Sequence record: PP925824.1
Source: Escherichia phage Chuche
DNA length: 34,514 bases
Reading direction: 5' to 3' (one strand)
Both the position numbers and the translations under genes were made by a program. This document shows, piece after piece, positions 31,210 through 33,905 of the stretch. The first letter of the stretch is position 1. The number at the start of each line of letters is the position of its first letter. The notes beneath the pieces are model-generated. The model was not told the DNA's origin, searched no databases, and saw nothing but the letters and a program-made list of their open reading frames with translations.

Positions 31210-33039
31210 ATGAGTACCACAACACGAAAATTTAAAACCATTATCACTGATACTGGTGCCCAAAAATTAGCTCAGGCCGCCGCGCCAGATGGTAAGCCTG
31301 TCCGCCTGACTCACATGGCTGTGGGCGACGGTGGCGGCACGTTGCCCACACCAGACAGTAAGCAGACCTGTCTGGTGCATGAGGTGTGGCGACATACCGT
31401 TAATCGCGTCATCCTGGACGCAACACATCAGAACCGCATTGTTGCGGAGCTGGTTATTCCTCCTGAAACGGGCGGATTCTGGGTCCGGGAAATTGGTGTG
31501 TTTGATGAGCACGGTGATTTAATCGCGGTGGGCAATACTGCCGAAAGTTACAAGCCAACCGTTGCCGAAGGGTCCGGACGTGCGCAAACATTTCGCACCA
31601 TCCTGACCGTATCCAGCACTGCCACCATGGAGCTTACCGTGGATAACACCATGGTTATGGCCACAGTGGATTACGTGGATGGCAAACTGAAAGAGCATGA
31701 ACAGTCACGACGTCACCCGGACGCCTCGCTGACCGCAAAAGGCTTTGTTCAACTCAGTAGCGCCACTAACAGCGATTCTGAAACGCTGGCTGCAACGCCG
31801 AAAGCGGTTAAGGCCGCGTATGACCTGGCTAACGCAAAATATACCGCTCAGGACGCCACGACGGCACAAAAAGGGATAGTCCAGCTCAGTAGCGCCACCA
31901 ACAGCGATTCAGAAACGCTGGCGGCAACACCAAAGGCGGTAAAGGCAGCATATGACCTTGCTAACGCAAAATATACCGCACAGGACGCCACCACGGCACG
32001 AAAAGGTCTTGTCCAGCTCAGTAGTGCCACTAACAGCGATTCTGAAACGCTTGCCGCGACTCCGAAAGCGGTGAAAGCTGCCAATGACAATGCAAACGGG
32101 CGTGTGCCCTCAGGACGTAAGGTTAATGGCAAACCACTGAACAATGATGTCAATGTTACATCGCAGGATATTTTTAACGGTCAGAGTATTGAGATTGGTG
32201 CAAACCAGAATCTGGATAATTACAAAACGCCGGGGCTGTACCATCAGCCAGCGAATGCCAATACAAGCGCAGTGCTGAAATACCCGGAGAACCTTGCGGG
32301 CACTCTGGTTGTGCTTAAAAATGCCGGAATAACACAAATTTACTATGTGTATAACACATCCAGAAGCTATACCCGCAGCCAGTATTCAACGGGAGGCTGG
32401 ACACCATGGACGCCGCAGGATTCATTTCCGGTAGGTGCGGCGATTCCGTGGCCTTCTGATTCAGTACCTACAGGCTATGCCATTATGCAGGGGCAGACTT
32501 TTGACAAGGCAGCCTATCCCCTGCTTGCAGGAGCTTATCCGTCAGGAGTGATCCCCGATATGCGTGGCTGGACAATCAAGGGCAAACCCGCCAGTGGCCG
32601 CGCCGTATTGTCTCAGGAACAGGACGGTATTAAATCGCATACTCACAGCGCCAGTGCGTCAAATACAGATTTAGGAACGAAAACGACAAGTTCATTTGAT
32701 TACGGCACGAAGACAGTCAGCACGTTTAACCATGGCACCAAAACCACCAATACAACAGGCAATCATACACATACAATTTACAGGGGTAATGCCAGAACCA
32801 ACAGTGAAACCGGTTATACAGGTTTTGATAATCCATCATTTAATGGAACATCAAGTGCAGCAGGGAACCATGCTCATACTGTCGATATTGGTCAACATAA
32901 CCACACCGTAGGTATTGGTGCCCATGCACACACTGTGGCATTGGGGGCGCACGGACACACTATCACGGTCAATGCTACAGGTAATTCAGAGAACACCGTA
33001 AAAAATATTGCATATAACTATATTGTGAGGCTCGCATGA
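31210..33039 (+). CDS. H: Tail fibre protein H
   Basis: 609 aa; conserved N-terminal baseplate-attachment region; three internal 44-aa repeats; C-terminal HxH repeats (GNHAHTV, GAHAHTV, GAHGHTI) typical of fibre tips. Confidence 0.85.
31738..32100 (+). repeat. Three tandem 132-bp coding repeats inside tail fibre gene H
   Basis: KG(F/I/L)[40 protein letters not shown] repeated at 31738, 31870 and 32002 (third copy diverges at its end). Confidence 0.7.
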
Positions 33040-33905
33040 TTAAGTTAATTCTTTCAGCGCCAGTCCATGAAATGGCAGATGCGTTTAAACGCGTTTTCGG
33101 CAATACCGACAATGTGGATGTTGCAGAAAAACCATTTGAAGCAATCTCAGAATTTGACTGCATGGTAAGTGCGGCAAACAGTTTCGGGCTAATGGATGGC
33201 GGCGTGGATGCTGCCATTACCGCATTTTTTGGTACTCAACTACAGACGCGTGTTCAGAATCATATTATTCGTGAATATCTTGGTGAACAGCCTGTAGGTT
33301 CTGCATTTGTTATTGAAACGGGGGATAATCATCATCCCTGGCTGGTACACGCGCCAACAATGCGTGTTCCGCTGACAATTGACGGAACAGACGCTGTATA
33401 TAATGCCACGTGGGCCGTTCTGCTTGCCATCTTTCAGCACAATAAAAATGCAACGACAGACAGGAAAATAAAAACGGTGGTATTACCTGCAATGGGGGCC
33501 GGATGTGGTCAGGTGCCGTTTGAAAGTGTTGCCCGGCAGATGAAGCTGGCATGGGATAACTTTAATAAAAAAACAGAATCAATTAACTGGGAATATGCAT
33601 ATTCCCGCCAGTGGGCGGTATTTAACACATGTGCATACTGCCCCGGTAAATCTGGTTGTCGTTATGCTGATATTAAATATATTGGATGTGGCGATTACCG
33701 TACGTATTGCTTGCGGTCAGGGCAGGTATGTATTAACCCTGAACATCAGGTTGATGACGTGCTGACTAATAATCGCTCTCGCCCGGGGGCACATATACAC
33801 CAGATTAATCCGGTAAAACCCGTAGGTAACGTTACCATTGGCGCACACAGCCACGGAAGGAATATCACCATTGGTGCTCATTCCCATACAACCAATAAAC
33901 AATAA
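33036..33905 (+). CDS. Macro domain protein with tail-fibre-tip-like C-terminus
   Basis: ATGA overlap with the H stop; residues 1-175 carry macro-domain motifs ([18 protein letters not shown]; [14 protein letters not shown]) resembling YmdB/MacroD; C-terminus has a Cys-rich stretch and GAHIHQ / IGAHSHG / IGAHSHT repeats like the H C-terminus. Confidence 0.7.

Follow-up and report, generated by a model that had tools for sequence, protein, structure and literature searches.

Organization of the fibre-end locus

This analysis concerns a gene for a macro-domain protein in Escherichia phage Chuche (PP925824.1), whose 34,514-nt sequence, analysed over its full length, is referred to here as the window. 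The gene is an open reading frame (ORF) of 289 amino acids (aa) plus stop at 33036-33905, located on the forward strand, as are all features of the locus described below, between the tail-fibre gene H and the gene of a tail-fibre assembly chaperone. Its product is composed of three parts: a complete macro domain, a Cys-rich module that is putatively zinc-binding and a C-terminal tail bearing the HxH repeats of phage fibres. The ORF is genuine, and both of the macro motifs quoted in a first-pass annotation of this DNA are present, at aa 45-61 and aa 150-161.

The upstream gene H (31210-33039; 609 aa) matches the Pfam families Phage_tail_fib, Phage_fiber_2 (three times) and Collar. The C-terminus of its product carries four HxH repeats at 9-residue spacing (H554-H583) and ends in ...NIAFNYIVRLA. 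In the sequence the TGA stop of H and the ATG start of the macro gene are read as a single ATGA overlap (33036-33039), which is a classic layout for coupling by termination and reinitiation. A scan for promoters and terminators around the macro gene returned nothing beyond shuffle expectation. The macro frame is -1 relative to that of H; a programmed -1 frameshift fusing the two products was considered and rejected in favour of reinitiation coupling, as a slippery heptamer is lacking at ...AGGCTCGCATGA. Downstream, a 30-nt spacer (33906-33935) contains a Shine-Dalgarno-like AGAGGTG (33926-33932) and precedes the gene of a Tfa / gpG-like tail-fibre assembly chaperone, hereafter Tfa (33936-34514; 192 aa; Pfam Caudo_TAP, E 2.4e-38). 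In the Pfam scan, the macro protein itself had no Caudo_TAP match. Judged from homologues, which begin MTFKMS or MTFRMS, and from the position of the Shine-Dalgarno-like sequence, the true start of Tfa is the ATG at 33936 (MTFRMS...) and not the mechanically listed GTG at 33930.

A complete macro domain

The N-terminal part of the protein matches the Pfam Macro profile (PF01661) well above its cut-off (66 bits versus 22; E 3.7e-18), with aa 44-169 covering profile positions 1-118 of 118. A monomer model of the full protein was built with AlphaFold2 (AF2) from a 25-sequence homologue alignment; its mean predicted local distance difference test score (pLDDT) is 60, with values mostly of 65-88 over aa 1-178 and poor values past aa 178. 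Foldseek comparison of this model with the PDB gave 105 matches at E<=0.001, the best 50 of which are macro domains or designed proteins based on the TTHA0132 scaffold. The top match is yeast Ymx7 (1njr; E 2.8e-9), aligned over 214 columns that include the N-terminal extension, followed by human MacroD2, E. coli YmdB, TTHA0132 and DarG; the viral models closest in fold are macro proteins of giant viruses and jumbo phages. The macro-domain assignment of the first-pass annotation is therefore confirmed by both profile and fold. Single-sequence and profile searches of PDB sequences returned distant macro matches only, and none for the C-terminus.

A HMMER scan of 1.84 billion representative proteins identified 2379 clusters at E<=0.001. 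The best matches are mostly stand-alone proteins of 190-215 aa with 40-63% identity, aligned to approximately residues 2-195 of the query, and a few matches are eukaryote-like multidomain proteins. The extent of the stand-alone homologues defines the domain proper as aa 1-196 (33036-33623), which is a complete and genuine macro domain belonging to a large, mostly stand-alone family.

The domain contains three conserved elements, two of them loops of the ADP-ribose-binding type: loop 1 (N48-SFGLMD-G55-G56-V57-D58; nt 33168-33218), a PTMRVP motif (aa 107-112) and a second Gly-rich loop (G154-A-G-C-G158; nt 33483-33518). Across 125 family representatives, N48, G51, M53, G56, D58, G83-E-Q-P-V-G88, P107-T-M-R-x-P112 and G158 are near-invariant, being conserved at 86-98% (94-97% for N48, G56, D58 and G158), and the phage protein retains every one of these residues. 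The register of N48-x6-G-G-V-D58 coincides exactly with that of the catalytic Asn and Asp of the MacroD motif. The MacroD-type enzymes (YmdB, human MacroD1/2 and Oceanobacillus MacroD) thus have in common with the window protein the fold, the N-x6-GGVD register (N48, D58) and the second Gly-rich phosphate loop. On these sequence features, the domain is expected to bind a ligand of the ADP-ribose type and is probably a hydrolase, the probable target of hydrolysis being a substituent on the distal ribose.

Placement within the macro superfamily is less precise. Ymx7 (YMR087W), the best structural match, belongs to the Poa1p/Macro_2 branch and shares a loop of the 'NSFG..GG.D' type; however, identity is only 19% and Ymx7 possesses neither the Cys knuckle nor the HxH tail nor a phage context. 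The Pfam Macro_2 profile (PF14519) scores 25.2 bits, under its cut-off of 27, and precomputed PF14519 matches exist for some close homologues. The protein is best described as a near neighbour of the Macro_2 / Poa1p-Ymx7 branch and not as a demonstrated member. None of the NCBIfam macro-enzyme equivalog models reaches its cut-off (scores of 20-49 bits against cut-offs of 200-315); the best score is 49 bits versus 246, and the O-acetyl-ADP-ribose deacetylase models give 20-30 bits versus 200-271.

A Cys knuckle and a fibre-type HxH tail

The C-terminal 110 aa, described in the first-pass annotation as a single fibre-tip-like module, on sequence comparison are two things: a Cys knuckle that is unlike H and a 48-aa HxH tail. 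Only the latter, the last ~48 aa with the HxH repeats, retains the fibre-like description. The Cys-rich aa 176-241 score 21 against H, below the 27 +/- 4 of shuffled sequences, and by both BLASTP and Smith-Waterman alignment the likeness to H is absent outside aa 248-285.

The knuckle module (aa 197-241; 33624-33758) is a putative zinc-binding mini-domain. Of the six Cys residues in the Cys-rich stretch, four are conserved as C202-x5-C208 and C225-x6-C232; these are invariant across the family alignments and are followed by H237-Q-V-D-D. The assignment of this CX5C...CX6C element as a zinc knuckle is a prediction drawn from pattern and invariance. In an AF2 model of aa 183-289 alone (mean pLDDT 50) it forms a small beta-sheet of only moderate confidence (pLDDT 55-73), and this model was too poor for a fold search with the Cys module.

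The tail (aa 242-289; 33759-33902) contains three G-A-H-x-H repeats, GAHIH, GAHSH and GAHSH, with His pairs H253/H255, H271/H273 and H282/H284. Its Smith-Waterman score against the H C-terminus is 69, compared with 35 +/- 6 when the tail is shuffled 1000 times at constant composition, a score of 69 being reached in no shuffle (z 5.7). BLASTP against H aligns 15 identities in 38 positions (E 0.001), and profile alignment with hhalign of 13 tails to 11 fibre C-termini gives a probability of 92.8% (E 3.9e-7) over 33 columns that correspond exactly to the HxH repeats. The tail-fibre family phrog_295 also gives a weak match spanning the HxH region. The similarity to H noted in the first-pass annotation consequently exceeds anything attributable to His/Gly composition. 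The macro protein is nevertheless devoid of a fibre Pfam domain, of the ...NIAFNYIVRLA end and of an N-terminal virion-attachment or shaft domain.

In the R1/R2 pyocin fibre, T4 gp37 and P2 gpV, HxH motifs contributed by each of three chains form an octahedral iron site (PMC6116203). These proteins have G-x-H-x-H repeats in common with the macro tail, partly at the 9-residue period that is also found in H. Unlike those fibre and spike sites, the macro repeats end an enzyme and not a fibre shaft, and both metal and trimer are predicted only. By analogy with these structures, the tail is a predicted metal-mediated trimerisation zipper.

Distribution, tail types and selection

Homologues of the full protein form 1454 clusters at E<1e-5 and are distributed across Escherichia, Salmonella, Erwinia, Citrobacter and Enterobacter, where they are named 'macro domain-containing protein' or 'phage tail protein'; the latter name was probably assigned on the basis of neighbouring genes. 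Residues 1-264 match PHROG 2613 ('unknown function'; E 3e-135). This PHROG, Gifsy-1 STM2588.1n, SEN4 gp19 / SEN5 and RefSeq E. coli prophage proteins all belong to the same family, with 67-70% identity over 90-96% of the length. These relatives have the same three-part architecture and the same order of fibre gene, ATGA overlap, macro gene and Tfa. The window copy differs from them in its longer tail with three HxH motifs, in its 30-nt spacer in place of an 11-nt overlap with Tfa, and in its P88-like (Xuanwuvirus) backbone.

At least six sequence types of tail can be distinguished beyond the conserved HQVDD. With the exception of truncated entries and one degenerate allele, every tail keeps one to three G-[AST]-H-x-H motifs, and several tail types display the fibre-like 9-residue HxH spacing. 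Pairwise ratios of non-synonymous to synonymous substitution rates (dN/dS) among 61 distinct genes amount to 0.10 in the macro domain, 0.17 in the knuckle and 0.40 in the tail, figures that are descriptive as the pairs are not independent. The tail is the fastest-evolving part, with a mean identity of 0.47, and all three parts are under purifying selection.

These observations bear on an alternative raised in the first-pass annotation, namely that the protein is a chimera produced by recombination at the fibre 3' end, considered here as a chance chimera or a decaying pseudogene. Fibre 3' ends are recombination hot spots, the GC content of the cassette (0.42-0.47) departs from that of the backbone (0.57-0.63) and frameshifted or truncated copies are occasionally encountered, all of which such an origin would accommodate. 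However, the three-part architecture is found in 1454 clusters, the gene is intact in ~76 of 80 loci and purifying selection is indicated in all parts. No DNA repeat is shared with H either: the best match in a repeat search of the H 3' end against the macro 3' end was 20 nt at 80%, which is motif-level, and a recent duplication of the H 3' end was rejected on this basis. With an HxH tail that is family-wide and selected, and no duplicated DNA from the H 3' end, the chimera proposal is contradicted and is regarded as extremely improbable.

The nearest stand-alone homologue is a 207-aa protein with 63% identity that has no Cys/HxH extension (Logan contig SRR27421442_71; locus L006, 4134-4757). 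It is encoded in the accessory region of a lambdoid phage, between methyltransferase and ParB_N genes and upstream of terminase. The presence of a stand-alone relative in an accessory region points to an intracellular accessory role, which would later have been captured and given a fibre-like tail in the enterobacterial lineage.

An alternative explanation places the protein on the virion as a displayed enzyme or lectin, with the HxH tail and knuckle docking a macro trimer on the fibre tip or on the Tfa complex, where, outside the cell, it would bind or modify during adsorption a surface glycan bearing ribose, phosphate or acetyl groups. Elsewhere, HxH metal sites occur in fibre and spike proteins that are extracellular, the macro gene is always within the fibre-tip/Tfa cassette and its translation is apparently coupled to that of the fibre, and relatives are often called 'tail protein' by NCBI and PHROG, although probably by neighbourhood. 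Against this, the protein has no baseplate- or fibre-attachment domain and no ...NYIVRLA terminus, an ADP-ribose-like surface substrate is not known, and a literature search found no virion proteomics evidence. The close stand-alone relatives in non-structural phage regions, together with the cytoplasmic eukaryote-like multidomain proteins of the family, further argue against display, and this explanation is considered unlikely.

Several fragmentary or composite relatives were also encountered. A tblastn search of 50,697 phage genomes (E<=1) with the C-terminal 115 aa recovered the same family and a remnant in phage SEN34 only; megablast of the macro gene against the 50,697 phage records gave no match, the relatives being recovered at the protein level. 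The SEN34 remnant (NC_028699.1, 22357-22554; locus L003, 4001-4198) is a portion of the Cys module (57% identity to aa 184-255) and does not follow the reading frame of the hypothetical gene annotated there. It adjoins an O-acetyltransferase moron, downstream of the genes for fibre and Tfa, and may be what is left of a macro gene since lost. In P0024 (463 aa; Logan contig), a ParM N-terminal part is joined to the macro protein from approximately residue 60, and P0255 (190 aa) consists of a lysozyme-like N-terminus followed by the last macro-domain helix, the Cys module and the HxH tail. Both are probably assembly chimeras or deletions and not real alternative architectures.

An optional gene in a mobile host-range cassette

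The setting of the gene was analysed in 80 loci, comprising 76 IMG/VR viral contigs and four annotated records. The upstream ORF ends in ...NYIVRLA in 75 of the 80, and in 70 of those it has the 4-nt overlap with the macro ATG; in the other five the start codon chosen by the script lies further downstream. Of the five loci that have no ...NYIVRLA ORF, three are truncated by the end of the contig. In 77 of 81 cassettes, the window included, the gene immediately after the macro gene encodes a full-length Tfa homologue (52-81% identity), and in Salmonella versions the junction between macro gene and Tfa is an overlap (-11 or -4). The upstream fibres vary widely in length and N-terminus, from P2-type H (SEN4) to lambdoid side fibres (Gifsy-1 and E. 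coli stfR-type), a diversity which implies that the block moves as a cassette. The first-pass annotation knew of no such arrangement in P2-like phages, but SEN4 and SEN5 (Peduoviridae) share the gene order and their product is annotated 'macro domain-containing protein'. The fibre/macro/Tfa order is also present in lambdoid Gifsy-1, whose record notes the Pfam Macro domain.

Amongst complete E. coli genomes, 128 of 5426 (about 2%) carry the macro gene at >=~85% nucleotide identity, and 860 match some part of a 2-kb query spanning the fibre end, macro gene and Tfa. The gene is also found, in the same three-gene order, in many E. coli prophages and on plasmids of ~93-154 kb that bear phage genes and are probably P1-like. 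One of these, the ~95-kb plasmid p1919D3-2 (NZ_CP046005.1; locus L004, 5510-6401), likewise with phage genes and probably P1-like, has the closest E. coli copy of the macro gene, at 94% nucleotide identity. This copy is annotated as frameshifted, the upstream fibre gene is in pseudogene pieces, and morons for a lipopolysaccharide (LPS) N-acetylglucosamine transferase and an acetyltransferase follow Tfa.

Three E. coli cassettes lack the macro gene. Their fibre ends are 78-80% identical to that of the window over ~520-555 nt and their Tfa genes 67-83% identical, and the fibre and Tfa genes abut directly (...GCATAATG...). Homology with the window stops at 33040 and resumes at 33936. The macro gene and its spacer constitute a clean 895-bp indel (33041-33935), and the earlier description of the gene as 'inserted' between H and its chaperone is thus literally correct. 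As closely related cassettes exist without this block, the macro gene is an optional accessory and evidently not needed for fibre assembly.

The optional nature of the block raises the prospect that it is a moron whose role in ADP-ribose metabolism resembles housekeeping, for instance as an ADP-ribose-1''-phosphate (Appr-1''-p) phosphatase or O-acetyl-ADP-ribose deacetylase aiding the lysogen or infected cell, which landed in a permissive gap and whose HxH tail is a tolerated fibre remnant. Beyond the 895-bp indel itself, this would be in keeping with a top fold match that is an ADP-ribose-1''-monophosphatase, with a tail that evolves fastest (mean identity 0.47; dN/dS 0.40) and with other morons just downstream of the cassette, a glycosyltransferase here and LPS transferases, an acetyltransferase and PagK in related phages. 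A tolerated remnant is nonetheless difficult to reconcile with HxH repeats that persist across lineages and tail types in five genera at dN/dS <1, and the four knuckle Cys are invariant. Moreover, this gene lacks its own promoter signal and is apparently coupled to a structural gene of the late class, in contrast to the usual lysogenic-conversion moron. A metabolic moron is accordingly judged an unlikely explanation.

The constancy of the position between fibre and chaperone could instead reflect a part in fibre assembly, in which the HxH tail mimics the fibre shaft and engages Tfa or the nascent fibre trimer as a co-chaperone, timer or quality-control factor, with the macro domain serving as a ligand-sensing switch and not as an enzyme. 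The position is obligate and coupled upstream, and often on both sides (the -11 or -4 Tfa overlap of Salmonella). All cassette segments covary (rho 0.44-0.87), and the tail identity matrix correlates best with the Cys module and with the N-terminal half of Tfa (rho 0.84 each). Physical linkage alone predicts this correlation, however, and near-identical fibre tips and Tfa proteins exist without the macro gene and are presumably functional. The conservation of the catalytic-loop residues, which matches that of the stand-alone enzymes, also argues against a non-enzymatic switch. A role of this kind is rated quite improbable.

Proposed role in counter-defence

Macro domains are central to conflicts that revolve around ADP-ribose, including DarTG, Thoeris and viral de-MARylation (removal of mono-ADP-ribose). 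The explanation favoured here, tentatively and with somewhat less than even confidence, is that the protein is a late, fibre-coupled and probably trimeric ADP-ribose hydrolase or binder that functions in counter-defence. According to this proposal, the macro gene is an optional, late-expressed accessory riding in a mobile host-range cassette of fibre tip, macro gene and Tfa. The ATGA overlap, together with the lack of promoter or terminator signals around the gene, suggests that it would be translated by ribosomes just finishing H, so that the protein would appear late and beside the fibre and its chaperone. The knuckle would bind zinc, and the three G-A-H-x-H repeats, contributed by three chains, would form octahedral metal sites and hold together a short fibre-like homotrimer, which the downstream Tfa may help to fold. 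During late protein synthesis the enzyme would strip ADP-ribose adducts or else destroy or sequester immune signals derived from ADP-ribose; a trimer that is particle-borne could, in addition, be active as the next infection begins.

Reversal of ADP-ribosylation-based defence and association with the virion, both raised in the first-pass annotation, are plausible. Counter-defence is the best guess on the strength of three precedents. The phage protein AdfM, a DarG2-like macrodomain and anti-DarT factor of chimalliviruses, counters defence by removing from DNA the ADP-ribose attached by DarT2 (PMC13309987). A comparative survey predicts packaging and early use for those phage Macro, NADAR and Nudix proteins whose genes lie among morphogenesis genes (Iyer et al. 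2022; PMC9503650). Finally, sensitivity to type II Thoeris, a system whose signal is histidine-ADP-ribose (His-ADPR), is determined by tail fibres and their chaperones (bioRxiv 10.64898/2026.06.04.730250). This last result suggests a reason for tying an ADP-ribose enzyme to a fibre cassette, but as speculation and not as evidence.

AdfM is likewise a phage macro domain and, in acting against an ADP-ribosylating system, provides a functional precedent; in contrast to the window protein, which fails the DarG models, it is DarG2-like with an N/K active site, enters the phage nucleus by import and has no link to fibres (PMC13309987). The PhiPA3 macro protein that is matched by the window protein is gene 271 and not AdfM (gp108). 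As in the survey of Iyer et al. (PMC9503650), the gene resides in a late structural operon, here that of a myovirus. That survey stresses head-packaging contexts such as terminase and portal and, in the portion searched, describes no version that is embedded between fibre and Tfa or that carries an HxH tail.

A number of observations weigh against the counter-defence proposal. In relation to the enzyme, Thr62 takes the place of the His in the MacroD 'GGVDxxIH' motif, and Gly replaces the aromatic residue of loop 2 (GAGCGQ). The domain is not DarG-like, scoring 12 bits against a cut-off of 250 for NCBIfam DarG (NF048014) and 13 bits (E 0.013) over aa 139-175 only for the PADLOC DarG model. In relation to the trimer, the C-terminal 50 residues are unstructured in both AF2 monomer models (pLDDT ~30), leaving motif analogy as the basis for trimerisation; a value of this kind fits a segment that is an obligate oligomer and equally fits disorder, and so would speak neither for nor against a trimer. 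Between the tail and either the fibre HxH region or Tfa, covariation does not exceed the level that linkage predicts. No ADP-ribosyltransferase, TIR or other partner linked to nicotinamide adenine dinucleotide (NAD) was present among the window ORFs scanned. For most counter-defence, furthermore, expression this late would be unusual, and fibres are not injected.

In a more novel variant, Tfa would build the macro protein into a fibre-like trimer borne by the particle with the fibre tip, so that a virion-borne ADP-ribose enzyme would pre-empt or quench signals or adducts at adsorption or during fibre synthesis. Supply of the enzyme would then be tied, both genetically and physically, to the very structure, fibre and chaperone, that is able to trigger immunity based on TIR and ADP-ribose. 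This variant is considered unlikely.

Novelty and implications

The sequence family itself is already in the databases: the Gifsy-1 record notes its Macro domain, RefSeq and the SEN4 record name the protein and PHROGs clusters it. A full-text literature search found no functional, structural or proteomic study of the macro-tail family and no description of a macro protein that is HxH-tailed or embedded in a fibre cassette. What is new is the combination, on a phage macro protein, of a lineage-specific knuckle and a fibre-type tail, the predicted metal zipper, with a fixed place in a host-range cassette. To our knowledge, no phage macrodomain had a proven role in counter-defence until a report of 2026. 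To a specialist, a phage macro domain alone would be unsurprising; the architecture is odd, and an anti-defence protein that is particle-borne or fibre-linked would be notable if true.

Housed in a mobile host-range cassette, the macro gene moves along with receptor specificity among P2-like phages, lambdoid phages and plasmid-borne phages that are probably P1-like, and the HxH tail could make the enzyme a trimer or a component of the particle. If the counter-defence proposal is correct, one exchangeable block would carry both adsorption and immune evasion and so set host range. The gene is easily left behind when fibres are swapped for phage therapy, which would matter in the same circumstance. 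Were the enzyme virion-borne, anti-defence enzymes would gain a new mode of delivery or localisation, and the HxH iron zipper its first use outside fibres. The gene is common, being carried by Gifsy-1 of S. Typhimurium LT2 as well as by the E. coli genomes enumerated above, and is easy to delete.

Genomic backbone and other features of the window

The window is a P2-like prophage of the P88 type (Xuanwuvirus), with structural genes that are 98% identical to those of phage P88, and it also has integrase, repressor, gpA, sheath and tube genes. The fibre end of P88 differs in having an invertible second fibre/Tfa pair and an invertase. GC content falls from 0.57-0.63 in the baseplate genes (28000-31000) to 0.42-0.47 from ~32650 to 34514; the 3' part of the fibre gene, the macro gene and Tfa form a cassette that is compositionally foreign to the P88-like backbone.

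At the other end of the window, an ORF of 244 aa on the reverse strand (31-765) has no Pfam match but strongly matches a 'glycosyltransferase' moron family, PHROG 1962 (E 1.4e-84). Should the record be circular, this ORF lies just after Tfa, where P88 has the inverted second fibre/Tfa pair and the DNA invertase, and it may be a serotype-conversion gene. A hairpin, gcaggcgaatcgcctgc, is located at 10-26. Other accessory genes of the window, at 17084-18043, 18591-19397 (reverse strand), 8945-9736 and 12146-12514, encode a ParM-type actin-like segregation protein, a DUF3800 protein, an N6/N4 DNA methylase and a DUF4761 protein, respectively.

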